Below are positions 27,233-47,130 of a stretch of 64,000 bases of DNA, piece after piece; position 1 is the first letter of the stretch, and the number at the start of each line of letters is the position of its first letter. The position numbers were made by a program, and so were the translations under genes. Where the stretch lies: contig CAWEUW010000007.1 in the NCBI GenBank assembly GCA_963812375.1, forward strand, positions 225,856 to 289,855, written 5' to 3'. Under the pieces are notes generated by a model. It had not been told where the DNA came from and ran no database searches. It was given only the letters and a program-made list of their open reading frames with translations. Source of the DNA: an uncultured Acidimicrobiia bacterium (GTDB lineage: Bacteria; Actinomycetota; Acidimicrobiia; Spongiisociales; UBA5794).

Positions 27233-27309
27233 GCCGGGAGGCCGTCTCCTCTCACCCGCCGCTCAACCTGCCAGGAAGCTGAGCCTACCTGGCGGTCCGG
27301 GTTGTCGGC

Positions 27310-27680: not shown

Positions 27681-27772
27681 TCGGCTTCGGTGCGAACGAC
27701 CTGAAGATAGGTCCGCGACCCGGTCCCGGGCTGGCGCCGCTGGTACGGTTCGACGGATGAGGAGGTGACAGC

Positions 27773-27955
27773 ATGGCACAGGCACCGTTTACCGGTTCGG
27801 GCACCGCCGACGACCCGTGGGTCCTGAAGACACCCAGCCTCGGGTCCGAGATCCTGATGCACCGGGACGAGCTCCACGACCCGCCCATCCTCGTCTGCAC
27901 CGTGGGAAGCACCGTCCTGCACTACGACCTCAGGATCATCGACGACCTCCACTGA
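27773..27955 (+). CDS. small hypothetical protein (upstream part of a two-ORF unit separated only by an in-frame TGA)
   Basis: MAQAPFTGSGTADDPWVLKTPSLGSEILMHRDELHDPPILVCTVGSTVLHYDLRIIDDLH*. The stop TGA 27953-55 is immediately followed in the same frame by ATG 27956. Confidence 0.4.
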   Translation: MAQAPFTGSGTADDPWVLKTPSLGSEILMHRDELHDPPILVCTVGSTVLHYDLRIIDDLH

Positions 27956-28192
27956 ATGTTGCAGGAGCGGGGCGACTGGGTGCCGCTGGGCAACGCCGAC
28001 GAGCAGAAGCCGGCGGCCGAGGGGACGGTGGAAGCGTGGGCGAGGTCACCGGACAACCCGGTCGGAGGCTGGTACGGCCTGAAGAAGGGGCTCCGGGGCC
28101 GGGTGGGGAACTACGTGCCGCCGGTCCTCGAGGCGCTCGGGCTGGCCGAGGTGGAGCACAACGCCCGGGGTAACCGGATGCGGGCGATCTGA
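27956..28192 (+). CDS. small hypothetical protein (downstream part)
   Basis: MLQERGDWVPLGNADEQKPAAEGTVEAWARSPDNPVGGWYGLKKGLRGRVGNYVPPVLEALGLAEVEHNARGNRMRAI*. Confidence 0.45.
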   Translation: MLQERGDWVPLGNADEQKPAAEGTVEAWARSPDNPVGGWYGLKKGLRGRVGNYVPPVLEALGLAEVEHNARGNRMRAI

Positions 28193-28232
28193 CCGACTGT
28201 CCTGCTCCCGCGCTCTGATCGAGCTCGCTTGG

Positions 28233-28607
28233 TCACCGATCGGGGCCGGGCTCCCAGAGCTCGAGCCGGTTCCCGTCGAGGTCCCAGCACCAGCCGAAGC
28301 GACCGTTCTCGTCCTCGAGCACCTCGTCGTCCACGCGTACCCCGCCCGAGCGCAGCCGGGAGATCACGGCATCGAGGTTGTCGACCCGGTAGTTGACCAT
28401 CCACTGCTGGCGGTCCGAGCCGAAGTAGTCGGTATCGGCAGGGAAGGGCGCCCACACCGTCGATCCCCGCACGTCCCCTCCCCACGTCATGACGACGTAG
28501 CCGTCGGTGGCCGAGTCGAGCCCGAGGTGCTCGACGTACCACGCCTGGAGCGCCGCAGGGTCCGGCGACCGGAAGAAGACGCCGCCGATGCCGGTCACGC
28601 CTGCCAT
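28233..28607 (-). CDS. VOC (glyoxalase/bleomycin-resistance) family protein
   Basis: GGAGGGAGGA SD + ATG 28607. MAGVTGIGGVFFRSPDPAALQAWYVEHLGL...RLELWEPGPD*. Confidence 0.7.
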   Translation of the reverse strand: MAGVTGIGGVFFRSPDPAALQAWYVEHLGLDSATDGYVVMTWGGDVRGSTVWAPFPADTDYFGSDRQQWMVNYRVDNLDAVISRLRSGGVRVDDEVLEDENGRFGWCWDLDGNRLELWEPGPDR

Positions 28608-28632
28608 CTCGTCCTCCCTCCAGTATCGACGG

Positions 28633-31575: not shown

Positions 31576-31806
31576 CGATCCTCCCGAACGTGCTCGCTTC
31601 GCGGTGACAATAACGGCGCGGCCGTCGCCGGGCTCGAACGGATAGCTACGGGAGGTCGTCGGCATACCGCGGCGAGCGGCGATAGGGTCGTTGGGAGCAC
31701 CCGGAGGTCGATCTGGTCCGTGGCCCCGATTGCTCATCGGACGACCGATGAGTCTCGACGGCCGGCGACGTTTTACCTCAGACAGACGATCGAAGGAGAG
31801 GGCGCG

Positions 31807-32200
31807 ATGGACTACAAGCTCGAGATGGTGCTGCTGCCGGTGGCCGACGTCGACCGGGCGAAGGCGTTCTACCAGCAGGCCGGCTTCAACCTCGACGTCG
31901 ACCACCAGCCCAGCGACGAGTTCCGGGTGGTCCAGTTGACCCCGCCGGGCTCGGCCTGCTCGGTCGCCTTCGGCATCGGCATGACCGACGACCGACGCCC
32001 GGCTCCGTCCAGGGGCTCCACCTGGTGGTGACCGACATCGAGACGGCCACGCGACGAGCTGGTCGGGCGCGGCGTCGAGGTGAGCGACGTCCGGCACATG
32101 TCCCCGGAGGGCTGGAAGCCGGGGGCCGACCCGGAGCACGCCCGACTACAACTCGTTCGCCGACTTCGCCGACCCCGACGGCAACAGCTGGGTGCTCCAG
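31807..32200 (+). CDS. VOC/glyoxalase family protein, frameshifted; no stop before the following sigma-factor reading frame
   Basis: ATG 31807 MDYKLEMVLLPVADVDRAKAFYQQAGFNLDVDHQPSDEFRVVQLTPPGSACSVAFGIGMTD. It continues in other frames: ...VQGLHLVVTDIETAT / DELVGRGVEVSDVRHMSPEGWKPGADPEHA / DYNSFADFADPDGNSWVLQEVGYGT.... Confidence 0.55.
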
Positions 32201-32230
32201 GAGGTCGGGTACGGGACGGAGCCGGGCAGC

Positions 32231-33190
32231 GTGACCGCTCACCGCCGACGAGGCAGGACTTCGCCGCCGCTCGCCGAGCGGCACCGCCGGGAGCTGCACG
32301 TCCACTGCTACCGGATGCTGGCCTCGTTCGACGAGGCCGAGGACGCCGTGCAGGAGACCTTCCTGCGGGCGTGGCGTCATCGGGACAGCTTCGACGGCGA
32401 CGGCGCTGTCCGGGCGTGGCTCTACCGCATCGCCACCAACGTCTGCCTCGACATGCTCCGCCGCCGCGCGCGCCAGGCGCGGCGGGTGGCGAGCCACACG
32501 CCGAGGTGCCGTGGCTGCAGCCCTACCCCGACGTGCTGCTCGACGAGGTGGCGCCGACCGACGGACGGGCCCGAGGCGGCGGCGGTCGACCGGGAGACGA
32601 TCGAGCTCGCCTTCCTCGCCGCCCTCCAGGTGCTGCCGCCGCGCCAGCGGGCGGCGCTGATCGTCCGCGACGTGCTCGGGTGGCCGGCCGGCGAGACGGC
32701 GGCGCTGCTGGAGACGCAGCGTGGCGGCGGCCAACAGCGCCCTGCAGCGGGCCCGGGCGACGATGCCGCGAGCACCTGCCCGCGCGGCGGTCCGAGTGGT
32801 CGGCCGGCCGCCGAGCGCCGAGGAGCGGGAGCTGCTCGATCGCTTCATCGACGCCCACGAGCGGTGCGACGCCGCCGCCGCCATCGCCATCGCCGCCGAG
32901 GACATCCGCATCACCATGCCGCCGTACCCGATGGCTGTACGAGGGGCTCGACCAGCTGGCGCCGCTGCTGGAGCGGGCCTTCGGCGAGGATCGCGACGGC
33001 GACTGGCGGCTGCTGCCCACGATGGCCAACCGGATGCCGGCCGCCGCCAGCTACCTGCGCCGCCCCGGCGACACCGTGTTCCGCGCGTTCAAGCTCGACG
33101 TCCTGCGGATCGGAGGGCGGCGCCATCGCCGAGATCACCACCTTCGGCCCCGAGCTGTTCGACCACTTCGGCCTGCCGGCGAGCGTGTGA
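32231..33190 (+). pseudogene. ECF sigma factor of the SigG/SigJ-like class with C-terminal SnoaL/NTF2-like extension; at least 3 frameshifts
   Basis: AERHRRELHVHCYRMLASFDEAEDAVQETFLRAWRHRDSFDGDGAVRAWLYRIATNVCLDMLRRRAR (region 2). Then EVPWLQPYPDVLLDEVAPTDG, ETIELAFLAALQVLPPRQRAALIVRDVLGWPAGETAALLET (region 4), SVAAANSALQRARATM, EERELLDRFIDAHERCDAAAAIAIAAEDIRITMPPYPM, WYEGLDQLAPLLERAFGEDRDGDWRLLPTMANRMPAAASYLRRPGDTVFRAFKLDVLRI, GGAIAEITTFGPELFDHFGLPASV* lie in alternating frames. Confidence 0.6.
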
Positions 33191-33199
33191 CCCGGCTCC

Positions 33200-33773
33200 T
33201 GGTCGGGAATCTCGAGCCCCGACGCCGGCGTCAGCCCGCCTCATGGCCGGCGTCGAAGTCGGCGGCGGCTTCGGCGGTGAACGGTGCCCGGTCGACACCG
33301 GCCACGGCCGGCGATCGGATCGAGCACGAACCCGGTGTGATCACCCAGCGGGATCGTCGCCACGATCCTTCCCGCCCACCAGCTGTCGACATCGAGGAGC
33401 ACCGGGGCGCCGCCGGGCCCCGGGACCAGGCGACACCGGCGAACTTGTCCACCTCGTCGCCGGTCTCCTCGCCGAACCACCGGGCGAGGTCGACGTCGCC
33501 GGCGTCGACATGGTGCACCACCATGGTGTCGACCTCGGAGGCCACCTCGAAGGTCCGATTCCGCGTGGACAGGCACACGAGATAGCGGGCAGGCTCGACG
33601 CTGCACCGGGTATGGAAGCCCACCAGACAGCCGGCAGCCTCGCCATCGATCGACGACACCGTGGCGATCACCATCGGGTGACGTGAGCGGTCCGTGATGG
33701 ACTCGAACGGTCCCGGCCCATCGGTCGACCCGGCAATGCGGTGCGCCGGATCGTCGCCGGACTCGATCGACAT
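33200..33773 (-). CDS. flavin reductase-like domain protein (NAD(P)H:flavin oxidoreductase component); frameshift near 33420
   Basis: ...RHPMVIATVSSIDGEAAGCLVGFHTRCSVEPARYLVCLSTRNRTFEVASEVDTMVVHHVDAGDVDLARWFGEETGDEVDKFAGVAW, then in another frame ...GGAPVLLDVDSWWAGRIVATIPLGDHTGFVLDPIAGRG.... Confidence 0.6.
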
Positions 33774-33831
33774 GGCTGCGTCCCTATCCGGTCCTGACGT
33801 CGATGAAACCGCCGCCGGCGGCCGCGTCTGG

Positions 33832-34528
33832 TCAGCCGATGAGGGGCAGCCGCGGGTCGGGGTGGTCGGATCGTCCCGAGGCGGCGCGGACCCAAGCCAG
33901 TGTCGTCGACCAGGTCGGCCGGGCGTCCGGCGACCGTACGGCGGGCGAGCAGCTCGTCGAGGATCGCGCGGCGGTGACGGCGACCGCCGTCGTCGGTGGC
34001 GATCCGGTCACGACCCGAGGGCGTCGGTGAGGTCGATGCCGTGCACCACCGCCTCGACGATCCGGCTGGGCACGAACTCGTCGAGCCGCATCAGGGCGTA
34101 GTAGCCGGAGCCGACGGTCTCGGGCGGGGTCGCCCGCGACTCCTCGATCGTCTTGCCGAAGGTCTCGCGCGAGCACGGCCGGCATGTCGGCCGGGGTCTT
34201 GCCCTCGACCATCGTGTAACGCGTAGTCGTAGACCACCGGGGCGACCTCCGACCGCGGGAAGATGAAGAAGCTGACCCGGTCGCGGCCCGGGCTGGCCCG
34301 TCCGGGCGCTGGTCGGCGATCAGCATCCGGGTGAGCCCGATCGAGATGTCGAAGTGGCCGGCGAGCTCGAACAGCGTCCAGTGCGCCTTGGCCTCGTCGA
34401 GCGGGACCAGCTTGGGTTGCCGCCTGCCACTCGTCGTCGGACAGCCCGGCGAAGACGTCCACGATCTGGTCGAGCTCGGTCTCGAGGATGTCGACGTGCT
34501 CCGCATACGACGGCATGGTCAGCTCCAC
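33832..34528 (-). pseudogene. mycothiol-dependent maleylpyruvate isomerase N-terminal domain (DinB_2/TIGR03083) family protein, frameshifts
   Basis: MELTMPSYAEHVDILETELDQIVDVFAGLSDDEWQAATQ then (shift) KLVPLDEAKAHWTLFELAGHFDISIGLTRMLIADQRP, then further shifted fragments (VSFFIFPRSEVAPVVYDYALHDG / TPADMPAVLARDLRQDDRGVAG). Confidence 0.5.
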
Positions 34529-34624
34529 TCTCGGAGGAGGCGGACGGCGAGTCCGGGGTTCGAGCCGAATCTACCGGAGCATGCCCGGCCGCGCCCGGCG
34601 GACGGTGCCGATAGCCTGGATCTC

Positions 34625-35658
34625 GTGGAGAAGATCGGGTTCCTCTCGTTCGGCCACTGGCACCCATCGCCCCAGTCGCGTACCCGCACCGCGCCAGGAG
34701 GCGCTGCAGCAGACGATCGAGCTCGCCGTGGCCGCCGAGGAGATCGGCATCGACGGCGCCTTCGTGCGGGTGCACCACTTCGCCCGGCAGCTCGCCTCGC
34801 CGTTCCCGCTGCTGGCCGCCATCGGGGCCCGGACCAGCCGCATCGAGATCGGCACCGCGGTCATCGACATGCGGTACGAGAACCCGCTCTACATGGCCGA
34901 GGAGGCGGCCGCGGCCGACCTGATCGCCGGAGGCCGTCTGCAGCTGGGCATCAGCCGGGGCTCGCCCGAGCCGGCGCTGCGTGGCTCGGAGGCGTTCGGT
35001 TACGTGCCCGCCGACGGGCAGAGCGACGCCGACCTGGCCCGGGCCAAGACCGAGGTGTTCCGCGCCGCCATCGCCGGCAACGGGGTGGTGCGAGGCCGAC
35101 CCGCGGATGACCGGGCTCGACGGGATGCTGCCCATCCAACCGCTCTCCCCGGGACTGGCCGACCGCATCTGGTGGGGCTCGGGCACCCGCGCCACGGCCA
35201 CCTGGGTGGCGGAGCAGGGGATGAACATGATGAGCTCGACGCTGCTCACCGAGGACACCGGCGTCCCCTTCGACGAGCTGCAGGCCGAGCAGATCGCCAT
35301 CTTCCGGCAGGCCTGGTCGGACGCCGGCTGGGACCGGGAGCCCCGCGTCTCGGTGAGCCGCAGCGTCATGCCCATCACCACCGACGAGGACCGCCTCTAC
35401 TTCGGTCGGGACGCCGCCGAGCGGCAGGACCAGGTCGGCTGGCTCGACGGCAGCCTGTCCCGGTTCGGGAAGAGCTACATCGGTGAGCCCGACGTCATCG
35501 CCGCCGAGCTGGCCGAGGATGCCGCCGTCGCCGAGGCCGACACCCTGCTGCTGACCGTCCCCAACCAGCTCGGTGTCGACTACAACGCACGCCTGCTCGA
35601 GACCGTCGCCCGTGACGTGGCCCCCGCCGTAGGGTGGAAGCCGGCGTCGACCGGTTGA
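34625..35658 (+). CDS. LLM-class (luciferase-like) flavin/F420-dependent oxidoreductase; two frameshifts (~34660, ~35090)
   Basis: VEKIGFLSFGHWHPSPQS | EALQQTIELAVAAEEIGIDGAFVRVHHFARQLASPFPLLAAIGARTSRIEIGTAVIDMRYENPLYMAEEAAAADLIAGGRLQLGISRG... | ADPRMTGLDGMLPIQPLSPGLADRIWWGSGTRATATWVAEQGMNMMSSTLL...LLLTVPNQLGVDYNARLLETVARDVAPAVGWKPAS*. Confidence 0.6.
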
Positions 35659-35665
35659 CTGGAAT

Positions 35666-36488
35666 GTGACGGGGAAGAAGAGAACGATCGTTGTGATCAA
35701 CGACGACCTCGTCGATGAGATCAAGCGCCAGGCGAGGGCCACCTGGGCGGCGGGGAACTACGACGCCGCGGTAGACAACATCTGGGCGGCCGGCGGTGTG
35801 GTGGCCCACGCCGCCCGGGTGGGTCCCGGCGACGAGGTGCTCGACGTCGCCTGCGGCACAGGCAACGCCGCCATTCAGGCCGCCCGGGCCGGGGGTCGGG
35901 TCACCGGTGTCGACCTGACGCCCGAGCTGTTTGCGGCGGCACGGCGCCGGGCCGCCGCAGCCGGGGTCGAGATCGACCTCGTCGAGGGCGACGCCGAGCA
36001 CCTCCCCTTCGAGGACGGGTCGTTCGACGTCGTGCTCTCCACCTTCGGGGCCATGTTCGCTCCTCGCCATGCGGTGACGGCCAACGAGATCGTCCGCGTG
36101 TTACGGCCCGCGGGGGCGCATCGCCCTGGCCAACTGGGAGCCGGAGGGCTCGGCCTGGGAGCTGTTCCGCACCATGGCTCGCCACCTGCCCCCGCCGCCG
36201 CCGGCCGCCGAGCCGCCGTTACTGTGGGGGACCGAGGAGCACGTCCGGGAGCTCTTCGACGGGCGGCTGGAGCTCCAGTTCACCCGCCACCGCATCCCTC
36301 CCAACGAGGGCGACCCATCCGAGCTGGCCGAAGGGTATGTCGCGTCCTTCCCGACGATGGTGAGCGCCCGAGCGTTGCTCGAGCCGCAGGGGCTGTGGGA
36401 GGCAGCCGTGGCCGACGCTCGCTCGGCCGTGGAGCAGATTTACATCGAGCCGCCCACCTACTTGGTGGTGAGCGGCACCAAGCGCTGA
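35666..36488 (+). CDS. class I SAM-dependent methyltransferase; frameshift ~36115
   Basis: ...VLDVACGTGNAAIQAARAGGRVTGVDLTPELFAAARRRAAAAGVEIDLVEGDAEHLPFEDGSFDVVLSTFGAMFAP...IVRVLRP then (+1) GGRIALANWEPEGSAWELFRTMARHLPPPPP...YIEPPTYLVVSGTKR*. Confidence 0.65.
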
Positions 36489-36593
36489 CGCGGCCTCACC
36501 CGGGCCGGCACCGAGCCGCTGACGCCACCCGACTACCATTGCACCTGATCGTGCGGCGCCCGCTCGGGTGGCGCCGACCACTCATGAAGACCT

Positions 36594-36667
36594 GCGCCCG
36601 TAGCTCAATTGGACAGAGCGTCTGACTACGGATCAGAAGGTTGGGGGTTCGAGTCCCTCCGGGCGTG
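36594..36667 (+). tRNA. tRNA-Arg (anticodon ACG)
   Basis: GCGCCCG acceptor stem pairing with CGGGCGT, D-arm GCTCAATTGGACAGAGC, anticodon arm TCTGA-CTACGGA-TCAGA (ACG), T-arm GGGGGTTCGAGTCCCTC, discriminator G. CCA not encoded. Confidence 0.85.
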
Positions 36668-36673
36668 CTACGC

Positions 36674-36698
36674 GAAGCCCTGCTCAGGCAGGGGCTTC
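36674..36698 (+). terminator. hairpin immediately downstream of tRNA-Arg (GAAGCCCTGC-tcag-GCAGGGGCTTC)
   Basis: Near-perfect 10-bp inverted repeat starts 7 bp after the tRNA. The adjacent sequence gggcttcggcgcgtcgg recurs in near-identical form at 43141-43158 (gggcttctgcgcgtcgg). Confidence 0.35.
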
Positions 36699-36797
36699 GG
36701 CGCGTCGGACGGAGCAGTCGTTGTCGGCGAGGACCCTGATTCGCGGGTGGCAGAGCCGGAGGATCACCGCCATTGCGAGACGCGCTCGGACCCGGTC

Positions 36798-39700
36798 CTA
36801 GAGGCGGCGCAAGGCGGCACGGGTGAGATCGACGAAGTGTCTGGTCTGGAGCTCCTCGAATATGTCGAGAGCTCGGTGGAGTCGTTCTCGATCGAGATCG
36901 AGACGACCCAGGTTCATCTGGCTCAGGGCCTCCTCGAAGGGTATCTGAAGCCCGCTGGCGAGCTCTATCGCCGTGACCCACTCCTTTCTCGCTCCTGCGG
37001 CGTCTCCGCCCTGCGCTTTGAGACGCCCCCGGTAGCGGTGGGCGGCGGGTTGGCCGATGGGGAAGACGCGGCTATACGCGGTCAGCTTCTTGACCGCCCG
37101 CTCAGCCGAGGCCCCGGCATCGCCACGGCTGCGTCCCGTCCTCCAATGGACGAAGGTGGTCTCGGCGACGCCGGTGAAGCCGTCGAGGGCGAAGACGACC
37201 GTCGGCCGCTCGCCGTAGAGGGACTCGGCGGCCGAGGCGGCGGCAGCCCGGGCCCGGACGGGGTCGTTGAGCCTGGTGTAGGTCTCCGCCATCAGACCGT
37301 GGAGCCAGCCAACATTGGCGCCCCCCACGCCGGCATGGAGGAGGCGCTCCCCGTTGCGGAGGCAGACCATGGCCTCCCTGGCATCACCGCGTCGTAACAG
37401 GCTGGTCCCCTGGTACAGCCATCCCCACAATTCGGCCTGGGCATCGTCGAGACGGCTGCCCAGCTCACGGAGCTCCTCCCCGAGGTCGTACACCTGGAGG
37501 AACCTTCCTCGGGCCGTCAACATCTGACCGGTGGTCCCGAGGTTCTCGGCGAGCTGGCGGTAGTCGCTGAGACGTTTGTACAGATCGTACGACTCCCGCA
37601 ACTCCCATTCTACGGTGTCCCAGTCAGCCACTCCCACCCCATAGACGCTGGTCGACAGCTTGACCCAGGCGAGTTCGGTCATCCGATCCACCGCTTCGGC
37701 CACCTCGAAGCTCCGGGCTCGGTACGTGCGGGCCAGGCCGTGGAGGGGGATGATCCCGGCGACAATGCTCATGTTGGCGTAGATACGGGCCAGCACGGGA
37801 GAGGTCCCCGCTCTTTCCCGCGAGGTTGAGGCCGGAAACGGCGGCTGTCAGCAGGGCGCCGGGGTCGTTGGCGTAGTAGTAGATCTTCATCAATCGCTCG
37901 TGGGCCGTGGCCGCCTCGATCAGGTCCTCCCGGGCCTCCGGATCTAGAGTCCGTCCCTGGAATCTGGTGATTCGGTGGGCAGCCTGTAAGACGACGGCAG
38001 TCATCAACCGAGCCCCTACTCCCACCTTGCTCTTGCCGATCGGGTGACCGTGAAGATCGAGAGCCCGCTCAAAATGCTGGAGACTCTGGTCCACGCGGCC
38101 CATACCGAGATACGCCTCGGCGCGGTCCTGCTCCCACCTCGCCAGGATGCGGTCCGGGACCGACTTGGTCGGCTTTATGCCGGACAGTTCGGGATCCCCC
38201 TCACCGCCGCGGGCGATAGCGACGGCGTCGCTGAGGAAACCGATTGCCTCACGGTGAGCGAAGGTGCGAAGCGACTTCCGCCCCGCTCGACCCAGGTAGT
38301 CGAGGGCACGATCGACGTCCTCCCCCGGGGTGCTGGGTGAAAGGCTGTGTCGGTAGTGGTACGCCACGACGGCCAACACAGATTCTGGATCGTCGGCGTA
38401 CTCGTCCTCCAATGATCGAGCCACAGCTGCGTGCAGTTGATGGCGCTGCTCGAAGAGGAGCAGCTCGTAAGCGATATCCCGGGTTATGGCATGACGAAAG
38501 CGAAAGCGCTCGCTGTCGTTGAGTACGGGCTCCACCAGGTCCAGGGGGACAAGACCATGGAGGGATTCGACCACATCGAGAATGGAGATCTCACCAGGAA
38601 ATATCCCCACCAAAGCCCTCGGTGAAAACTCCCGTCCGATCACGCTGGCGACCTTGAGGATCGACTGCTGTCGTACCGGTAACCGGTCTAAGCGCCCGAT
38701 GATCATGTCCTGAACGCTCCGCGGAAAGTCGACCTCCCGCAGGTCCTGCACCTCGGGTGCCAGTCTGCTCTCCCGGTCCTCGATGATGAGCAACCCGGCG
38801 TCACGGAGAGCGAAACCAACCTCCTGGCTGAAGTAGGGGTGGCCCTCGGCGTGTTCGAGGATCAGTTCGGCGACTGGCCCGGGAAGGCTGGCCACTCCGA
38901 GGCAACTCTCCACCAGCTCCAGGGTCTGTGAGGGTTCGAGCTCACCCAGCACGATGTGCACAGTGTCGTCCTCGGCCATGAGGTGTCGGTACTCCTCGGG
39001 TGGAGGACTGGCCGATCCCTCGACGAAGGGCCTCGTCCCTATGACCACCAGCGCAGCGGGGATCTCGTGGATCACTCTTTCGGCCATCGTCCAGGAGGCC
39101 GAGTCCATCCAGTGGCCGTCGTCAAAGACCAGCATCAGCGGGCCATCCGACCGTGGGACGTCCCGCACGATCTCGACGATTAGTTGCTGGGTGTTTTCGT
39201 TGCGAAGATCGGGCTCCATGCCGCTCGTCAGGTAGGTGTCTTCCACTCGGCTGGCGATGATCGGCCGCAGCAGCCCTACCCGCTCCGCTTTCCAGGGGTC
39301 GGCATTCACGAACTCGAGAAGCCGGGCCTCGGCGGCCATGTCGTTTCCACCGAACGATTGCCGGAGCAGAGACCTCCAGGCGTAGTAGGCGGTGGCATAC
39401 TCGATCTCTTCCCCCGCCGTCACTATCACGCTCGTCCCCATTCCGCGGGCCTGGTCCATGAAGTCGGTGAGCAGATGAGACTTACCGATCCCGGCAGGAC
39501 CCTCGACGAGGACGGCGCCTCCTCGACCCCCGTGGAGCCGCCCCAGGGCCTCGCCGAGCAGCGACCGCTCCCGATCACGCCCGATCAGCCTCCCCTGTCC
39601 GGTGGGCCGCGCCGCCGAGGCTCGATCGAGATGGGGTGAGGCCTCGAAGAGGATCACCGGGTCCTCGAACCCCTTGAGACGAGTCGGTCCCACCGTGGAG

Positions 39701-40848
39701 AAGGACGCCCTCTGCCCCCGGGCCGAGGCGATCTCCTCGGTCACATAGACCCCTCCAACAGGCGCCCGCTGCATCAGCCTTGCCGACAGGTTGACGCTGG
39801 GCCCGATGACCCCGTAGGTCATCCTGGTACTGCCCCCATATGCGCCCACAAAGACCACCCCAGATGCGATCCCCACTCGCAGCGGTGCCGCACCGGGCAG
39901 CTTCGTCATGTCGAAAGCCGCTATCACGGCACGCCGAGCATCATCCTCGTGGGACACCGAAGCGCCGAACACCGCGTAGATATGGGCGCCTTTGTCGTCG
40001 AGCAGCGCTTGAAGAACCATTCCTTCATAAGAGGCGATCACCTCCTGAGCCCGACAGACGGAGACGTCGAACAGTTCGGCGGCTTCGTCGCCGATGGCGA
40101 AGTCGATCCCCTCGAAACCAACGAAGAGAGTCACCACGTTGCGGAGTTGACCCATCAACCGATCGAGTCCAAGCTCAAGATGTCCCGCAACAACGGGCAG
40201 GATCCACGCCTGCGCCTTCTGTCTGTCCAGAGTCATCAGGTCGGGATGAGGCACGGCCCCTTCCACATCCCCTGCCCCGTCCACCAGATATCGAACTCGA
40301 CCGTGCTCCTCCACAGGCCGCACCATCGCCCGAGACCTGATCGCGCGGGCCACACGTTCTGTGACGACGACCTCGCCGGCCTTCAACAGAGCCGCCTCTC
40401 CGGAGAGGGCCATGACGATCTCGCCGGCGAGGACATCCAAATAGGACTGTGCGGCGTTCCCGACCCGCAATCTCCGACCGGTCCCCGAGGCGACAGCCAC
40501 CTTTATTTCGAGGGCGTGTCCCTCCTGGTCCCGCAAGTCGTGGATCACATTGACGAGTTCCACGCCTACGGCAGTAGCCCGATGCCCGTTGTCCCCCTCG
40601 AACCAGCAGGTGACGGAGTCGCCGGCGAAGCTGATCACGCTGCCCCCGGCTTCGTCAATGACACCGATGACGGCGCCGAAGACACGGTTGAGGACCGCGG
40701 CCAAAGTCTCGGCCCCGAGACGAGGCCCATGGCGCCGGCTCAGATCGGCGGTGAGAGTGGTGAATCCTGTGATATCGGCGAACAGCGCCGACCCGTCGGA
40801 CAGGGTTCGCACGCGCCCCAGCCCGGCCAGCTCCAGTCTCCGATCCAT
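36798..40848 (-). CDS. very large multidomain signalling protein: tandem class III adenylate/guanylate cyclase domains + P-loop AAA/STAND-type NTPase + TPR-like helical repeats; one frameshift ~37650-37800 joins ORFs 37624..40848 and 36798..37796
   Basis: N-terminal CHD motifs FADITGFTTL... and FVGFEGIDF...GVIGPSVNLSARL. Walker A VLVEGPAGIGKSHLL, Walker B LMLVFDDGHWMD. Long helical repeat region. The downstream ORF (MLARIYANMSIVAGIIPLHGLARTYRARS...TPR-like) is contiguous in another frame. Architecture as in mycobacterial Rv0386/Rv1358-type cyclases but without a C-terminal LuxR HTH. Confidence 0.8.
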
Positions 40849-41329
40849 CGCCAGGTAGGCACCAAGCGATGGCTCCGCGCTGGTGTTGTCTGGTCGCCTG
40901 CAACGCTTCGTGGCCTTCTCTTGGAGGACTATGGAAGGGCAGGTGACGCCTCGGGTGCGTAGGTCTTCGCCATCGTAGGGCAGGACCGACCCGGGGAATC
41001 TCCACTTGATGCCCTCTCGCTCTCGCGACGGCTACCGCCGACCAGATCCTCGACCGCCATGGCCGCCTATCGCCACCGAATATTTGACTGAGGAGACTCA
41101 GCCACATCGTCGAGGCAGCGGACCTCGTTCTCTGTGGTGAGATCATCGAGCTCGACGGTGTCGGTACGCCATTGCTTTCGGCCCGGCCAACGCTCTCGTC
41201 GCCCTCAGCCCACCGGATTGACGGCGGCGCGACGAATCTGACGAGACCTGGGAGCGTCGGCGGCTCGCTTCCCCGACGACGGCGTCCCAAGCGGCGGCGT
41301 CACCCGGCTCCGACCACCCATCCCACGCT

Positions 41330-42292
41330 TCACTCGACCGGAAGCTGTCGGCCGCCTTCCCAGCGGATGGTGCGGGCCTCGTGGCCCACCTGCCGCCAGG
41401 AAGCGTCGAGTGCGAAACGTCCCAGAAGTGTGCTGGTCCGCCACCCTGCGATCTGATCGGGTGTGAGACCCCGTTCCAGGGCTTCGCCGGCGAGGAAGCC
41501 TGCGGCGGCGGCCTGGGCCGCCACGTAATCGGGTGGGATGCCTTGCGTCGTCTCGTATTCACGAGCGAATGAGGCGCCACTCGGGCCGACTTCGGGGGCC
41601 GCGGTCTCGGGGAGCCACTGCACCGGGCCCAGCACCCCCTCGGCGCCGGGACCGAGCCGCGTTCCGAACTCACGCAGTCCGGCGGCCACAGATCCGATCA
41701 GCCCCGGCCGGCCACGGCTTAGCTCAGGCACAAGGGCCACTTCGTCTTCGAAGGCACCGGCCACGAGGACCGCCGATCTCGGCGAGACAGCATCGGCGCC
41801 CAGAGCCGTGCTCAACCGGATCGCCCTTACCGTAAGCCCGATCCGGCTCGCCTCCGAGCGAGCACCCGAGGCGACGGCGGAGGCGAATCGCCCAGGACCC
41901 ACCACCAGCAGGATGTCCTCCATGCCGGCTTCGCCGGCGAGCTGCACGGCACGCTGAAGATAGGTCGAGGCAGGAGCGGGCAGGGTTGCGACCAGCGGCC
42001 GGGCCAGGTCGTCGGCGGATCCACCGTGATTCCACAACACGGCTCCGGTTGCCGTCACCAAGGGGCCGACGCGCCGCACCAGCCCGCTCCCGTAGGGACC
42101 GAGCAGGATGTCGACGCCGTTCTCCAACCATCGTGCGTACCACCCGGCAGCCGTGGAAGGCGACCCCGCGTCGTCTTCGAGAGCCAGGGCAACTCCGGAC
42201 TCGGAGGCCCACCATTGCAAGGCCAGGGCTGCCTGCCGGCCCTGAAGTGAGAGCGGCCCGGTCAGACTGACCGTGGCGGCTGCGCTCACCAC
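41330..42292 (-). CDS. periplasmic-binding-protein type I (LivK/amide-binding-like) domain protein without recognisable signal peptide
   Basis: MVSAAATVSLTGPLSLQGRQAALALQWWASESGVALALEDDAGSPSTAAGWYARWLENGVDILLGPYGSGLVRRVGPL... resembles the Leu/Ile/Val-binding fold. No N-terminal hydrophobic signal. Confidence 0.55.
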   Translation of the reverse strand: MVSAAATVSLTGPLSLQGRQAALALQWWASESGVALALEDDAGSPSTAAGWYARWLENGVDILLGPYGSGLVRRVGPLVTATGAVLWNHGGSADDLARPLVATLPAPASTYLQRAVQLAGEAGMEDILLVVGPGRFASAVASGARSEASRIGLTVRAIRLSTALGADAVSPRSAVLVAGAFEDEVALVPELSRGRPGLIGSVAAGLREFGTRLGPGAEGVLGPVQWLPETAAPEVGPSGASFAREYETTQGIPPDYVAAQAAAAGFLAGEALERGLTPDQIAGWRTSTLLGRFALDASWRQVGHEARTIRWEGGRQLPVE

Positions 42293-42409
42293 ACCGAGCC
42301 TCCGCGGAAAGGGCGCCTCTTCGAGGTCACAGACAGCACGCCTGCCAGGAGAGAGTGGTCAATCCCGCCGTCATACGCCCTCGGCAACGTAGGTTCCGTT
42401 CGGTACCAG

Positions 42410-42600
42410 CCGCGATGCCGGAGCAAGTGCGGAAGGTGCAATTGACCATCATCATCATCGGGACTCTGCGAAACTTCATCAACAGTGAGCCTGTCGACTC
42501 GGCCCGGGGCGCCACCATGCCGGTGATCAACCCAGCCACCGGGGAGGAATACGCCCGGCCCCCCTTTCGACCGCACCGGACATCGATGGCGCCTGTCGAG
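42410..42600 (+). pseudogene. remnant of an aldehyde dehydrogenase gene (N-terminal ~50 codons only)
   Basis: ...LRNFINSEPVDSARGATMPVINPATGEEYARPPF... matches the conserved ALDH N-terminus (..FINGEWVDS.SG.TFPVINPATGE..). The frame then degenerates and no ALDH body follows. Confidence 0.4.
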
Positions 42601-42817
42601 TCGCCCTCGAGGCCTACCCCCGCTGGCGCGATACCGACACCAGAGACAACGCTCATCAGCCTCACGTCATCAATCCGAAGCGGAGGCTTGGGGAGCCAAG
42701 TTGGGAGCCATTCTCTGCGGACCGCCATGGACTGACCTGGATGGCCATGGATGAGGAACCGTTGCGCCTCAAGGGTTCCCGGACCCTCATGGACGCCTGT
42801 GGACCCCGCTTGGAGAC

Positions 42818-42859
42818 CTACGGATCAGAAGGTTGGGGGTTCGAGTCCCTCCGGGCGTG
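42818..42859 (+). repeat. 42-bp perfect direct repeat of the 3' part of tRNA-Arg (anticodon loop to 3' end): att-like island boundary
   Basis: ctacggatcagaaggttgggggttcgagtccctccgggcgtg is identical to 36626..36667. With the intact tRNA it brackets a 6.2 kb segment (36626..42859). Confidence 0.8.
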
Positions 42860-43191
42860 TAAGCCGTAGGTCCCTGACCCGCGCAAACATGCGAGAACCC
42901 CCGCCGTCTGACGCTCCTGGCAGGCGGCCTTCGGCTTACGCCCGACCTGGCTTGGCGTCCCACCACGTACCTCCGCCCAAGTTCCACCGCGACCACGACC
43001 TCGATGAAACCTGCTGGTCTGGCTCCCGAAGAACGAGGACTCCGCGTTCAGAGCGCTACCCCCCCTGAGCTCGGTCGCGGAGCGGCATTCGGTCAGGGAG
43101 CCGGGCTGTGGCTGCCAGGCGTGCTTCTAAAGGCTTGCGCTGCAAGGGCTTCTGCGCGTCGGGGTTGCGTCCCTCGGGCCGACCTGATGAC

Positions 43192-44050
43192 CTAGGTAGC
43201 CGCTCGGACGAGGCGGAACACCTTGCGCGCGCCGGGCAGACCCTTCATCTCGTGGGTGCCTGCTTCCTCGAGCTTCAATCCCGAACCCTCGAGGAGATCG
43301 AATGTCGTCGAGGACACGAGGACTTCGTCCGGACCGCCGACAGCCATGATCCGGGCGGCGGCGTGGACGGCGAGTCCCCGGGCGTCATTACCGACCAGCT
43401 CGACCTCGCCCGTGTGGAGGCCCACCCGGATCGGGAGATCCATCTCGCGCGCCGAACGGGCCATCGCCGCACCGCACCGCACTGCCCGTGCGGCGCTGTC
43501 GAACACCGCAAGGAAACCGTCACCGGTGGTTTTCACCTCACGCCCTCGGAAGACATTGAGCTGGTCGCGGAGACGAGTGTTGTGGACCAGTAAGAGGTCG
43601 CGCCAGGCCGTGTCGCCCACCATGTGCAGGGTCGCCGTTGAGTCGACGATGTCCGTGAACAAGACGGTGACAAGGACTCCTTCACCGGCTCCCTCGGGAA
43701 CGAGCCCGAAGACCCGGGCGCTCGTCCATTCGACGGTCAGCCATGGATCGTCGCCAACGACCCAGGCGTCGTGACCGGGTGGGATCTCATACACCGAAGC
43801 CGGCGGGATGTCGATCGCCTGGCCATCGTCCATCTCGACGTGCATCGAGCCAGAGATGGAGTAACCCAGGTGGTGGAGCTGACAGCTGCACAGTCCCCGC
43901 GATTGCCGGCATTGCGGTCGACCAGCGCCAACCGGGCTCATACGTCGCACGACCGACGACAGAATCATCGAGACTGACAACTTCGGCGCGGCCATTGGGG
44001 AAGGCTCGCACTTCATCCGGCGACGTAAAGGTCTTGTACTGAAGTCGAGG
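43192..44050 (-). CDS. cupin-domain + class III adenylate cyclase (CHD); frameshift between the two domains (~43790)
   Basis: ATG 44050 MPRLQYKTFTSPDEVRAFPNGRAEVVSLDDSVVGRATYEPGWRWS (cupin). In another frame ...MHVEMDDGQAIDIPPASVYEIPPGHDAWVVGDDPWLTVEW...VLVTVLFTDIVDSTATLHMVGDTAWRDLLLVHNTRLRDQLNVFRGREVKTTGDGFLAVFDSAARAVRCGAAMARSAREMDLPIRVGLHTGEVELVGNDARGLAVHAAARIMAVGGPDEVLVSSTTFDLLEGSGLKLEEAGTHEMKGLPGARKVFRLV*. Confidence 0.65.
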
Positions 44051-44342
44051 CATACGGAACCCTCTAGGAATCCGCGAGCGGCGTCCCGGTCCGGACCGCC
44101 TCGCCGGCATCGAGAATCGCCTGGCTGGCCATGGAGGGTAGGCGTCCCGTGATGTGGGCGAAGTTGGGGGGGGGTTCCTTCGAGTTGACGGGCCACCGGT
44201 AGACTCTCAGCGAGATCATCCACGAGCTCGTAGAGGCGGAGCGGCCCGCATGGCCACACGCCTCGCTCGTTTCCCGGATGCGCCGAAGCTCGCTTGGGTA
44301 GGCTCGGCTGCGGCAGCAGGCGACGGGCGAAAGGATCCCGCG

Positions 44343-45161
44343 ATGGGCGAATGGCAGTTCCTCGACTCGGCCTCACGCACCAACCTGGTTACCGCTGCGG
44401 AACGTGAGTCTGAGGGGTTCTTCGAGCTGGCCTCGGACCCGGATCGTTGGGAGTCTCCGACGGGCGCCGGGCATTGGCAGGTGCGAGATGTCGTCGGCCA
44501 TCTCGTCGACACCACCGAGACCTACTTCATCGGGTTCGACGCCGCACGCGGAAACGGCGAAGGGCCGGAGAACCTCGGCCTGGCCGACATGGCGTCGTGG
44601 GTGGACAAGGGCGGCCAGTCGTTCCGGGGAACGCCGCAGGACGAGATGATCGCCCGGTGCAAGGCGGCCCGGGCACGCTTCAACGGAATCGTCGACGAAC
44701 TGAGCGACGACGAGTGGGCGGGTCTGATGGTTCCGCACAAGTACATGGGACCGCTCCCCGCCGCCTTCTACCCGCTCTTCCAGCTGGTCGACTACGGCGT
44801 CCACAGCTGGGACATGCGGGAGGGAACGGGTGGGGGCCACGCCCTCGACGGTGACAGCGCCGACCTACTCGTCCCGCTCGCCTTCATCCTGTGGCAATCG
44901 ACCCCGAGCATCCCGCCCGACACCGAGCCCTACGACGTGGGCGTCGAGGTCACCTCGGGACACAACGCCGGGAAGCATCGGATCTCGGTGTCGCCGGATG
45001 GGCTCGGCGTGACCGATGGCGAGCTCGACGACCTGCCGGCGGTGCTCGAATTCGATCCGGCCACCCTGGTGCTGACCTCCTACGGACGGATGAACGCCGG
45101 AACGGTGCGTGGCGACCGCGAGATCGCCGAGCGCTTCCTCAACTCGTTCTTCCGCATCTAG
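44343..45161 (+). CDS. TIGR03083-family (mycothiol-dependent maleylpyruvate-isomerase-like / DinB_2) protein
   Basis: SD aaagga + ATG. MGEWQFLDSASRTNLVTAAERESEGFFELASDPDRWESPTGAGHWQVRDVVGHLVDTTETYFIGF... intact 272 aa. Confidence 0.65.
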   Translation: MGEWQFLDSASRTNLVTAAERESEGFFELASDPDRWESPTGAGHWQVRDVVGHLVDTTETYFIGFDAARGNGEGPENLGLADMASWVDKGGQSFRGTPQDEMIARCKAARARFNGIVDELSDDEWAGLMVPHKYMGPLPAAFYPLFQLVDYGVHSWDMREGTGGGHALDGDSADLLVPLAFILWQSTPSIPPDTEPYDVGVEVTSGHNAGKHRISVSPDGLGVTDGELDDLPAVLEFDPATLVLTSYGRMNAGTVRGDREIAERFLNSFFRI

Positions 45162-45174
45162 AGAAGGGATCGCC

Positions 45175-45679
45175 ATGACGGCAATCGACCTGGAGGCGAT
45201 CGAGCGCGAACGAAGCCGCATCGCCGACACGTACCTCACCCAGCCGAATGCCGAGTCGTCGGCCCGTGGCATCCATCACGTGGCCTTGCTGTCATCGGAC
45301 GTCGAGCGAACCGTTCAGTTCTACCAAGGGCTGCTCGAGTTCCCCATGCTGGAGATCTTCGAGAACCGCGACTACCAGGGATCGAGCCACTTCTTCTTCA
45401 GCCTCGGCAACGGGAACACGCTTGGCGTTCTTCGACTTCCCCGGTCTCGACCTGGGCCCCTATGCGGAGGTGCTCGGCGGGTTGCACCACGTCGCCATCT
45501 CCGTGGAGCCGGAGAGGTGGGAGCATCTCCGCGCCAAGCTCGACGACGCCGGGGTCGACTACCTCCTGGAGAGCGAGGTCTCGATCTACTTCACCGATCC
45601 CGACGGAGCGCGCATCGAACTGATCGCCGACCCGCTCGGGGAGATGTACGGCAACCAGCTCCTCGACAAGAAGGAGTGA
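45175..45679 (+). CDS. VOC/glyoxalase family protein; frameshift ~45425
   Basis: GAGAAGGGA SD + ATG. MTAIDLEAIERERSRIADTYLTQPNAESSARGIHHVALLSSDVERTVQFYQGLLEFPMLEIFENRDYQGSSHFFFSLGNGNTL then (+1) AFFDFPGLDLGPYAEVLGGLHHVAISVEPERWEHLRAKLDDAGVDYLLESEVSIYFTDPDGARIELIADPLGEMYGNQLLDKKE*. Confidence 0.65.
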
Positions 45680-45700
45680 GGAGAGTCGCGTGGGTCGGCG

Positions 45701-46608
45701 ATGCGGCTGAGCGTCTCACTGCTGAGCCGCTACGACGACCCCGACCCGCGCCGCGGGGCCGAGGCGATGGTGGAGCGCACCATCGCCGCCCGGGAGGCGG
45801 GGCTGGACGCGCTCTATCTGGGTGACCACCACTCGGTGCCGTCCGGGTACTACCAGAACACGCCGATGCTGGGCCGTCTCCTCGCCGAGTGGCCACGGAC
45901 CACCGGAGCGCTGTACCTGTTGCCCCTGTGGAACCCGGTCATCCTCGCCGAGCAGGTAGCCACCCTGGCGGCCATCGCCCGAGGCACGTTCATCCTCCAG
46001 GTCGCCCTCGGCGGCGGAGAGGAGCAGTTCGGTGCGATGGGCGTTCGGCTGCGGGACCGGGTCCGGCGATTCGAGGCGGGCCTCGACATCGTGCGCCGGC
46101 TGCTCGCCGGTGAGGAGGTGTCGACGGAGCACCATTCCCCACGCATCGCGCCCGCATCTCGCCGTTGCCCGTCGAGCCGATCCAAGTCTGGCTGGCCGGG
46201 CACGCTCCCCCGGCTCTCGCCCGGGCCGCCCGGCTGGCCGACGGATGGGTGGGCGGCCCCGAGGTGACGATCGACGGAGTGGCGGCACTCGCCGACGGCT
46301 ACCGGGCCGCCTGCGCGGCGATTCGACGCCACCCGGGCCCGATCGTGGTGCGCCGTGACATCCATGTCGCCGGCGATCACGAGGAGGCCGATCGGGTGAG
46401 GGCACGGGCCGTAGAGACGGGCTACCGAGGGTTCGATCCGGACGTGTTGGTGATCGGTGTGGTCGACCAGGTCGTCGCCGAGCTCGGGTCGCTCGCCGCT
46501 GCCGGTGTCGACGAGGTGGCGGTCAGGCACCTTGCGGAGGATCAAGCCGACGTCCTGGCATCGATGGCCCGTCTGGCCGACGTCCACGAGGCGTTGATGG
46601 CTGCTTAG
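45701..46608 (+). CDS. LLM-class F420-dependent oxidoreductase (luciferase-like); frameshift ~46150
   Basis: MRLSVSLLSRYDDPDPRRGAEAMVERTIAAREAGLDALYLGDHHSVPSGYYQNTPMLGRLLAEWPRTTGALYLLPLWNPVILAEQVATLAAIARGTFILQVALGGGEEQFGAMGVRLRDRVRRFEAGLDIVRRLLAGEEVSTEHH then (shift) PVEPIQVWLAGHAPPALARAARLADGWVGGPEVTIDGVAALADGYRAACAAIRR...VDEVAVRHLAEDQADVLASMARLADVHEALMAA*. Confidence 0.65.
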
Positions 46609-46741
46609 CGAGCGACAACGTCCTCACGACCGACCAGCCCTGCTTCGTGTGTTTCCCGAGGGGATCCGCGGGAGCCGTCGGAAGGCGAGAAGGGCTGAAT
46701 GCCCGGCCCGGCCCGATCGATGGATGAGCCAGACTGCCTCG

Positions 46742-47130
46742 ATGAGCGAGACCTACGAAGTGCGGCCGGTCGGCTACGTGCGCTCGGCGCTGACCGACCC
46801 GACGGACGCCCCGATGCAGGGAGCAGAGGGGCGCCCCCGACGCCTGGCTCGAGTTCGACCCTCCCGTAGGTGAGGCGGTGAGCGACCTGGCGGTCGGCTC
46901 CGAGGTGATCGTGATCACCTGGCTCCACCTGGCCAGCCGCGACGTCCTCCGGGTCCATCCCCGGGACGACGAGAGCAGGCCGATGGAGGGCGTCTTCAGC
47001 ACTCGGTCCCAGGACCGTCCCAATCCCATCGGCCTCCACCCGGTAACGGTCCTCGAGATCGACGGGTTGCGGGTCAAGGTGAACAACCTCGAGGCCGTCG
47101 ACGGCACACCGATCCTCGACATCAAGCCTG
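46742..47130 (+). CDS. TsaA/TrmO-like (YaeB family) tRNA methyltransferase; frameshift ~46840
   Basis: MSETYEVRPVGYVRSALTDPTDAPMQGAEG then (shift) ...SDLAVGSEVIVITWLHLASRDVLRVHPRDDESRPMEGVFSTRSQDRPNPIGLHPVTVLEIDGLRVKVNNLEAVDGTPILDIKPVLRD. Confidence 0.6.

Follow-up and report, generated by a model that had tools for sequence, protein, structure and literature searches.

Layout of the tRNA-Arg Locus

The DNA analyzed here, called the window throughout, is a stretch of 64,000 nucleotides from an uncultured Acidimicrobiia bacterium (GenBank assembly GCA_963812375.1, contig CAWEUW010000007.1, forward-strand positions 225,856 to 289,855), and by its closest proteins the host lineage belongs with Acidimicrobiia metagenome-assembled genomes (MAGs). 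We describe in it an island of about 6.2 kb that lies between a tRNA-Arg(ACG) gene and an exact 42-bp copy of the 3′ part of that gene, and that carries a large gene for a protein with class III cyclase domains, a STAND-type ATPase and TPR repeats. The two 42-bp copies are referred to as the cores of the left and right attachment sites (attL and attR), the sequence before the right core as the P arm and the sequence after the left core as the P′ side. The features of the locus, in window positions, are:

36594–36668, plus strand: tRNA-Arg(ACG) gene, called by ARAGORN and by Rfam (36594–36667, 66.9 bits), the sole tRNA of the window
36626–36667, plus strand: attL core, the 3′ 42 nt of the tRNA (exact 42-mer search)
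36669–36709, plus strand: terminator-like hairpin GAAGCCCTGC-TCAG-GCAGGGGCTTC on the P′ side, read from the sequence and 91% identical to the tRNA-downstream region of the related genome L006
36710–36797, plus strand: degenerate P′ arm (motif map, post-core alignment and nhmmer with a hidden Markov model (HMM) of the P′ side)
36798–40848, minus strand: cyclase gene with a 1350-aa product, from open reading frames (ORFs) and reconstruction across one +1/−1 frame shift near 37790
41330–42292, minus strand: Peripla_BP_6 (LivK-type) binding protein, 320 aa, no signal peptide (Pfam, 2.2e-15)
about 42515–42650, plus strand: N-terminal stump of an aldehyde dehydrogenase (ALDH) gene, about 45–50 codons with one frame shift (Pfam Aldedh, positions 9–52 of 461, E 1.3e-6)
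42691–42817, plus strand: P arm, 127 bp, with two GGGAGCCA repeats 12 nt apart and then (G/C)TGGAC repeats at a spacing of about 10–11 bp
42818–42859, plus strand: attR core, the exact 42-bp copy of the tRNA 3′ part (exact 42-mer search)
42860–43114, plus strand: 255-bp vestige of a second, older unit, which begins with a partial P′-type sequence, CCGTCTGACGCTC
43115–43189, plus strand: remnant of a third core (its last 7–10 nt, 43115–43124) fused to the native tRNA-downstream hairpin (alignment)

The repeated 42-mer, CTACGGATCAGAAGGTTGGGGGTTCGAGTCCCTCCGGGCGTG, spans the tRNA from the first anticodon-loop base to the discriminator base. It occurs exactly twice in the window, both times on the plus strand, and none of 100 shuffled sequences matched it. 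The core 20-mer GGTTCGAGTCCCTCCGGGCG is not repeated elsewhere in the window at up to three mismatches, ARAGORN called no second tRNA-Arg gene in the 64 kb that could account for the 42-mer, and no additional arms or cores that would mark the end of a larger island lie elsewhere in the window. Rfam, terminator and promoter scans of the island returned nothing besides the tRNA. In base composition the island stands below its left flank, with a GC content of 0.63–0.67 against 0.70–0.75 and a GC content at third codon positions of 0.76–0.82 against 0.86–0.93.

The order along the locus is tRNA, island, core, vestige of the second unit, vestigial third core and chromosome. The hairpin that follows the tRNA at 36669–36709 duplicates, in diverged form, the native hairpin downstream of the tRNA, which is itself found beyond the island. 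The CCGTCTGACGCTC sequence at the start of the 42860–43114 vestige is the one that stands after the tRNA of the related genome L007; the P arm and core of the vestige's own unit are deleted, and the vestige has no counterpart in L006 or L007. Window 43115–43189 is 92% identical to L006 12388–12463, that is, to the tRNA end and the region downstream of it, and window 43115–44212 is 97% identical to L007 17550–18647, a segment contiguous with the third 42-bp repeat of L007. By these alignments, the chromosome resumes at 43115–43189.

Presence and Absence of the Block in Related Genomes

The relatives L006 (CAWIBM010000006.1) and L007 (OY970227.1, a complete chromosome), both long-read MAGs, were retrieved by a genome scan with the methyltransferase gene that precedes the tRNA, the product of which is 92% identical. 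The flanks of L006 match those of the window at 92–97% identity. L006 aligns with the window up to position 36517, has the tRNA and its hairpin, and then continues with the homolog of window 43115 onwards, so that the block 36709–43114 (6.4 kb) is missing from it. Relative to L006 it is this block that is inserted, rather than the segment between the cores, because the vestige and the third-core remnant extend past attR.

In L007, where the tRNA gene is 100% identical to that of the window, the 42-mer recurs exactly behind this gene at 16579–16620 and 17517–17558. These repeats delimit units of 4.4 kb and 0.9 kb, each ending in an arm and a core; both are unlike the window island and both lack an integrase. 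Neither relative shows the genes of the window island beside tRNA-Arg without a repeat.

An earlier reading of the window, made from the sequence alone (the sequence-only reading), had described the tRNA-Arg gene with its exact 42-bp 3′-end repeat, an integrase-less segment between them holding the cyclase-STAND-TPR gene, a LivK-type protein and an ALDH stump, and had proposed site-specific integration followed by internal deletion. The tRNA and the repeat were recovered by ARAGORN, Rfam and the 42-mer search, and the gene content by Pfam and the ORFs. Integration is borne out by the missing block of L006 and by the other units that the same 42-mer bounds in L007, and the composition of the island agrees with it.

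A Conserved Attachment-Site Family

The 127-bp P arm of the window is 83% and 79% identical to the two arms of L007, and the similarity begins abruptly at GGGAGCCAAGTTGGGAGCCATTCTCTGCGG. A 30-mer of the arm occurs only once in the window. A search of metagenomes with a 21-mer of the arm returned 16 contigs, of which one was a chance match and 15 were real loci. At most of these, a complete arm stands directly before a core made of the tRNA-Arg 3′ half; in L087, L090, L091 and L096 the matched arm is cut short, as in L090 and L096, or has no core behind it. An HMM built from the arms of 13 distinct units, which themselves score 138–172 bits, gives the window arm 149 bits, inside the range of the other units.

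All 13 arms share a layout in which a pair of GGGAGCCA repeats, 12 nt apart, is followed by three (G/C)TGGAC-like repeats, 20 nt of variable sequence, another three TGGAC repeats and the core. On the P′ side, most units have a terminator-like hairpin after the core and then, at 60–90 nt, one or two GGGAGCCA-type sites with the consensus TGGGAGCCATTCTCGGGAGCCA. In the window, the P′ HMM matches the hairpin part only (36675–36709, model positions 8–42), and neither the motif map nor the alignment nor nhmmer found GGGAGCCATTCTCGGGAGCCA arm-type sites about 60–90 nt past the core. Judging from the lambda, L5 and pSAM2-type systems, good candidates are GGGAGCCA for the arm-type site of an integrase and the TGGAC series for excisionase sites.

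Units of this family often stand in tandem, with three arms in each of L095 and L098 and at least two in L088, L091, L093 and L097. L097 1–1972 and L098 2077–4048, which hold a luciferase-like unit, are 99.9% identical over 1972 bp and diverge precisely where the core ends on its 3′ side, each continuing into a different unit. This is turnover between strains, and these cores have therefore recombined recently. The cargo of the other units consists of toxin-antitoxin genes (Fic, RES, PemK) or of single metabolic genes (LLM, SnoaL, hydrolase, YecM, SRPBCC), and STAND proteins recur: besides the window, they are found in the L007 unit E1, in L093 (2477–5215) and L097 as an AAA_16-TPR-LuxR protein, and in L102 (12354–15995) as an NB-ARC-TPR protein beside an integrase, which by raw count is about 4 of 13 units. 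Selection for defense or sensing may lie behind this recurrence, but so may simply how abundant and large such genes are in these genomes.

Neither the 42-mer nor the arm 21-mer had a match in a collection of viral contigs, and a phage origin is unsupported. The module of arm and core, with its GGGAGCCA pair, TGGAC repeats and tRNA 3′ half, offers a usable signature for mapping island boundaries in metagenomes.

The Integrase and the Type of the Parent Element

One metagenomic locus, L094, holds a complete 6.2-kb unit of this family: tRNA-Arg (215–289), P′ sites, a DUF5677 gene, an integrase gene, cargo that includes a RES toxin, an arm (from 6355) and a core (6485–6526). The integrase is a 407-aa protein of the tyrosine type (Phage_integrase, 1.9e-27, with a SAM-like N-domain), and its gene reads towards the tRNA. 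Its homologs are numerous in Acidimicrobiia (70–90% identity) and in other Actinomycetota, and those at 76–78% identity sit in modules with RepSA, FtsK, HTH_17 and NUDIX genes, typical of the elements of actinomycetes that are integrative and conjugative (AICEs).

A pSAM2-like AICE module with FtsK/SpoIIIE, RepSA, an HTH_17 excisionase, integrase and NUDIX is present in L103 and L104, and in L102 RepSA and the integrase are part of such a module, with a NUDIX gene nearby. The integrases of L102 and L105 (78% and 71% identical) lie 4–5 kb from a tRNA-Arg(ACG) gene that is followed by the same P′ motif, and the L102 tRNA equals that of the window across the 75 nt compared. Between integrase and tRNA, L102 has a gene for a 1213-aa NB-ARC/TPR STAND protein that reads towards the tRNA; its position and orientation match those of the window cyclase gene. 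An AICE that has integrase, Xis, RepSA and FtsK terminates in a tRNA-Arg core at L103 15511–15552 and L104 8406–8447; the anticodon-stem bases are present there, with no tRNA 5′ half and no P arm in front.

The window itself has no integrase, as judged by tblastn with four integrases of the cognate family across its whole length and by a Pfam scan of the island ORFs. Permissive tblastn for Xis, RepSA, FtsK, NUDIX and other AICE core remnants gave only noise in the island and in the window. The island can be called only a remnant of an AICE, because the int-xis, RepSA and FtsK-like modules are missing from the window. Since L094, of the same attachment-site family, has an integrase, and the window has neither the integrase nor the P′ sites, the internal deletion proposed earlier is upheld.

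The Large Cyclase-STAND-TPR Protein

Pfam finds two Guanylate_cyc stretches (here C1 and C2), an AAA_16 domain (7.8e-21) and TPR repeats in the reconstructed 1350-aa product; a 1074-aa ORF covers the N-terminal part of the gene up to the frame shift. Exact-sequence look-ups with this ORF and with the binding protein of the window returned no record. An NCBIfam search with the protein gave a sub-threshold partial match only. Among solved structures, the best match by sequence search is human ADCY10, the soluble adenylyl cyclase (sAC), the C1 and C2 of which align to residues 17–143 and 228–367, respectively (E 7e-19). In this alignment C1 keeps both metal-binding Asp residues (sAC D47 and D99) and C2 keeps Asn412 and Arg416, while C2 is without the first metal-binding Asp, with Gly at the position of sAC Asn298. 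From these residues, the cyclase probably works through a single catalytic site, like sAC.

Other residues differ from sAC: Ser replaces the bicarbonate-binding Lys95, Gln replaces the adenine-specifying Lys334 and Gly replaces Thr405. Because these three are replaced, neither the nucleotide product nor a regulation by bicarbonate can be predicted. The cyclase Rv0386 of Mycobacterium tuberculosis likewise has Gln at the substrate-specifying Lys position. A structure model of residues 400–1017 (mean predicted local distance difference test, pLDDT, 87) has a STAND fold, and its best fold matches are 6mfv, an archaeal STAND-TPR protein, followed by Apaf-1, CED-4 and plant NLRs.

Full-length homologs of 1340–1379 aa and 58–65% identity are common in Acidimicrobiia, and cyclases of the same length occur in Chloroflexota and other phyla at 30–34% identity. 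At the four homolog loci compared (L001, L002, L003 and L005), no arm, core or tRNA-Arg lies within 10 kb of the gene. In all four the cyclase gene converges on, and slightly overlaps, an amine oxidase gene of 590–680 codons, and in three of them a SulP-STAS transporter gene lies nearby, the product of which carries a cyclic nucleotide monophosphate (cNMP)-binding domain in two. This arrangement suggests that cyclase, amine oxidase and SulP-STAS transporter form a conserved cAMP-linked module in Acidimicrobiia. The window gene stops 130 bp from the tRNA, without the amine oxidase neighbor.

Most likely, given these domains and residues, the large protein is a signaling cyclase resembling sAC, one more member of an already expanded family. 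A STAND-type signaling NTPase as the retained function of the island, as first proposed, agrees with the AAA_16 and TPR matches, the modeled STAND fold and the conserved catalytic residues, and stays at the level of a prediction. A more specific proposal, a regulator of the Rv0386 type, gives way to the tandem C1–C2 architecture of sAC/ADCY10 and to the missing LuxR helix-turn-helix (HTH).

Further class III cyclase genes lie in the window at 24953–26215 (minus strand, 420-aa product) and at 43192 to about 43850 (minus strand), the product of the latter being a cupin-cyclase that resembles the cyclase half of LipJ; across its 64 kb the window thus has at least three cyclase genes, which encode four catalytic domains. 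The cargo of the L007 unit E1 (12521–16199) has one cyclase domain, AAA_16 and a helical region with TPR; its LuxR-like tail was seen by reading the sequence, and Pfam found no HTH there. In L003 (3760–14074), two neighbors 2.3 kb apart are 62% and 61% identical to the window and L007 cyclase-STAND cargos, respectively, on a contig with no arm or core; the E1 cargo of L007 comes with a ferredoxin.

The Binding Protein and the Aldehyde Dehydrogenase Stump

The binding protein has 708 homologs; among the 120 listed, lengths run from 302 to 377 aa and most are about 320 aa. Compared with these, the window protein is full length for its family, and its short N-terminus is typical. The description of the protein as signal-less holds, in that no signal peptide is present, and N-terminal truncation is ruled out, since about 320 aa is the normal length in this family of about 300–380 aa. 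A role as a conserved partner of the cyclase was rejected, the contexts of the two homolog sets being unrelated, and so was a conserved partnership with the ALDH, as the binding-protein homologs sit in unrelated contexts; for the same reason no functional link between binding protein and cyclase is supported.

The ALDH stump reads towards attR, and its cut end lies roughly 40 bp from the start of the arm and about 170 bp from that of the core. At the other end of the island the amine oxidase neighbor of the cyclase gene is gone. Judged by sequence comparison, the two are deletion scars at both ends of the island.

Origin and State of the Island

The marks of a tRNA-integrated island all apply here: an intact tRNA gene with a direct repeat of its 3′ end, presence and absence with breakpoints at the repeat, a deviating composition and a cognate integrase, the last carried by L094, with homologs in L102 and L105. 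We hold with good confidence that window 36669–42859 is the remnant of a pSAM2/AICE-type element that lost its mobility genes and kept its sAC-like cyclase cargo. That it is a deletion remnant follows from the missing P′ arm sites, integrase and other AICE core genes, together with the ALDH stump.

From the direct observations, namely (i) the repeats, the polymorphism and the arm, (ii) the integrase-bearing relative, (iii) the missing recombination genes and P′ sites, and (iv) the domains and residues of the protein, we infer the following order of events, guided by well-studied elements that integrate into tRNA genes. A tyrosine integrase would have recombined the attP of the element, composed of P arm, 42-bp core (anticodon loop to 3′ end) and P′ arm, with the 3′ part of tRNA-Arg(ACG), the crossover falling within the 42-bp identity block. 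The tRNA would thereby have received its present 3′ half, together with a terminator hairpin, from the element, and the displaced chromosomal 3′ half would have become the downstream repeat. Later deletions would have taken out the module for integrase, excisionase, replication and transfer along with the P′ arm-type sites, and truncated the ALDH gene, while the P arm, the two cores and two complete cargo genes were spared. The parent in this most economical history would be an AICE-like or small integrase-bearing element. The surviving cargo most likely works in cyclic-nucleotide signaling, as a pseudo-heterodimeric C1–C2 catalytic unit under the control of a STAND ATPase/TPR sensor.

The island is probably locked in place, a fossil and not a mobilizable element; because the P′ sites are missing, we rate the fossil well above an island that can still be mobilized.

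Several points weigh against the history given above. Presence and absence among three species cannot separate a gain here from a loss in L006, and L006 is no pristine empty site, as it retains a P′-type arm site after the tRNA hairpin. The absence of an integrase is established within 64 kb and not genome-wide. No intact AICE with both ends and exactly this P arm was recovered, and only the small L094 element combines integrase, P′ arm and P arm. The P arm of the window is as conserved as that of other units (149 bits), which could mean residual function and not recency. On the side of the cargo, Gln and Gly take the place of the substrate-specifying Lys and of Thr405 of sAC.

A broader reading would make the tRNA-Arg(ACG) of Acidimicrobiia a cassette-like exchange site, at which arrays of units of one to a few genes, each with a complete and highly conserved attachment module (P′ hairpin and sites at one end, 127-bp P arm and tRNA core at the other), are actively shuffled in trans by the integrases of AICEs, resident or visiting, with STAND genes, cyclase fusions among them, as favored cargo. 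It draws on the integrase-less units, most of which keep both arms, a state compatible with active trans-mobilization. We regard it as doubtful. If it were true, the window island would belong to a working system and have been disabled only recently, instead of being random debris, and its STAND cargo could be a sensor that benefits the element or protects the host. An integron-like version keeps only a low probability, given the mixed gene orientation and the long two-armed attachment modules in place of attC-type sites.

The island itself could also be a still-functional cis-mobilizable element (CIME), mobilized in trans by the integrase and excisionase of a related AICE that resides elsewhere in the genome or arrives by conjugation, alone or together with a neighboring element. 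Neither the P arm nor the two cores are damaged, and their scores resemble those of other units; of the integrase-less units of L007 and the metagenome arrays, most have retained both arms; the split of L097 and L098 at the core 3′ end speaks for recent recombination; and such mobilization is documented in other systems (PMC5704250, PMC3146451). The window island, however, lacks the P′ arm-type sites that are present in every other unit with a recognizable P′ arm, the ALDH stump and the lost amine oxidase neighbor point to deletions at both ends, and no cognate integrase lies within the 64 kb, which together make present-day mobilization unlikely.

A defense function was the other role first suggested for the large protein. 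The cargo would then be an Avs-like or Pycsar-like anti-phage module, in which the STAND/TPR part senses a phage protein and the cyclase product triggers an effector. The gene does lie on a mobile-element remnant beside an attachment site, in a family where STAND NTPases recur as cargo (L007 E1, L093/L097, L102) and other units hold toxin-antitoxin genes (Fic, RES, PemK), and PADLOC gave weak PycC and Avs2 matches. These matches, at the level of domains, are as far as the support extends: that to PycC covers the generic cyclase fold only (3.5e-10), and that to Avs2 only 37–39 residues around the P-loop (E 5e-5), in a protein with a cyclase at its N-terminus. The top 50 fold matches include no Avs structure. 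Pfam found no cNMP-binding or Pycsar/Avs-type effector domain in the island, where the neighbors are the binding protein and the ALDH stump; the homologs at 58–65% identity have conserved neighbors (amine oxidase in 4 of 4 loci, SulP-STAS in 3 of 4) away from any arm, core or tRNA-Arg; and class III cyclases are abundant in this genome. An anti-phage role is thus improbable, and a signaling cyclase is preferred.

That the 42-mer is the leftover of a tandem tRNA-Arg duplication or an assembly artifact, with ordinary chromosomal genes in between, is hardly credible: the assembly is noisy, with many single-base indels, and tRNA genes are sometimes duplicated, but the 127-bp arm before the second copy is not tRNA-upstream sequence and precedes the same core in 13 distinct units of other genomes, an intact relative carries an integrase, relatives lack the block, and the 1074-aa ORF and the binding protein are both on record from one 738,707-bp contig.

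Frameshifts and the Flanking Chromosome

The sequence-only reading had noted the single frameshift of the cyclase gene, which comparison with the flanks shows to be no evidence of decay. In the left flank (25617–36517), the window differs from L006 and L007, which agree with each other, by 56 indels of a length not divisible by three in 10.9 kb, with a local density of 11–13 per kb at 32–34 kb. The right flank (43188–48929) has about 19 more in 5.6 kb, many of them within conserved genes, and the methyltransferase gene and two luciferase-like monooxygenase genes beside the island are frameshifted as well. Many of the indels are insertions after G or CG and not homopolymer errors; the pattern looks like a systematic error of the long-read consensus. 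Because the conserved flanking genes carry dozens of such indels, the single frameshift of the 4-kb cyclase gene is uninformative about decay, and pseudogenization on that evidence was ruled out. The case also carries a caution for pseudogene calls, since frameshifts in this long-read assembly are no biological evidence.

The two flanks differ in their likeness to the relatives. The right flank (43115–48929) is 96.6–98% identical to L006 and L007, and the left flank (25617–36517) only about 92%. On the right, GC content is low (0.645–0.67) up to about 45.5 kb, and kb-sized indels near 44.2 kb distinguish the window, L006 and L007. This flank holds cupin-cyclase, DinB/MDMPI, VOC and luciferase-like genes and may in turn be an island, older and shared, the far end of which was not found.

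Between methyltransferase and tRNA-Arg, L007 (10847–12065) and L006 (10850–12323) have a gene for a 294-aa GNAT acetyltransferase, where the window has only 77 bp (36517–36594). Further to the left, at 28633–32145 on the minus strand, lies a gene for a 1170-aa subtilase fused to nine stretches of RTX calcium-binding repeats.

Comparison with Known Systems

Tandem accretion, decayed elements and sAC-like STAND cyclases have all been described already, and the window island involves no new mechanism. Decayed elements and tandem accretions are known for elements that are integrative and conjugative (ICEs) or integrative and mobilizable (IMEs), for AICEs and for the ssrA islands of Dehalococcoides (PMC5704250, PMC2440964, PMC3146451). 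With the CIMEs and other decayed ICE and IME remnants of the ICESt1 family of Streptococcus thermophilus (PMC5704250), the window island shares its bounding attL and attR, placed at a target gene's 3′ end, a tandem arrangement with another remnant and the absence of integration and transfer genes of its own. A CIME by definition also keeps functional attachment sites (PMC5704250), whereas the window island is without P′ arm-type sites and the function of its sites is doubtful. It differs from the ICESt1 family as well in its host, an acidimicrobiian, in its target, tRNA-Arg(ACG), and in its parent, which would be AICE-like and not a Firmicutes ICE.

The tyrosine integrase of the family and an att identity segment that overlaps the tRNA 3′ end are shared with the pSAM2-type AICEs (PMC2440964). 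Remnants of AICEs are known in Streptomyces and Salinispora, and those described usually keep int and xis (PMC2440964). By contrast, the window has no AICE core gene, and the GGGAGCCA and TGGAC arm repeats are specific to the Acidimicrobiia family described here.

The Dehalococcoides islands (PMC3146451) likewise stand in tandem behind one small RNA gene, with direct repeats of its 3′ end and conserved bases upstream of the repeat; for 15 of them, which have no integration module, the proposal was that they are CIMEs or have become fixed (PMC3146451). They use a serine recombinase and a 20-bp repeat of the tmRNA, unlike the window family with its tyrosine integrase, 42-bp tRNA core and 127-bp arm.

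As for the cargo, the window protein has in common with ADCY10 the tandem class III domains, the metal-binding Asp pair in C1 only, and Asn and Arg in C2, at low identity and in a comparison limited to the catalytic half. Full-length sAC has a long C-terminal P-loop/TPR region. Bacterial sAC-like cyclases are known from Chloroflexus (cited in PMC11006738). In Rv0386, Rv1358 and Rv2488c of Mycobacterium tuberculosis, a class III cyclase, an ATPase, TPR repeats and a LuxR HTH are combined (PMC2447327, PMC3466318). Like the Rv0386 type, the window protein joins a cyclase to an AAA_16-type STAND ATPase and helical repeats; the Rv0386 type has one cyclase domain and a C-terminal LuxR HTH, whereas in the window protein there are two cyclase domains, with no match to GerE or another HTH. 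The cargo of the L007 island is closer to the Rv0386 architecture than the window protein is.

Set beside these systems, the window offers a clean, comparatively verified case of accessory signaling genes that enter and become fixed in Acidimicrobiia, here in an uncultured soil lineage, by the route of AICE-type integration at tRNA-Arg and subsequent loss of the mobility genes.

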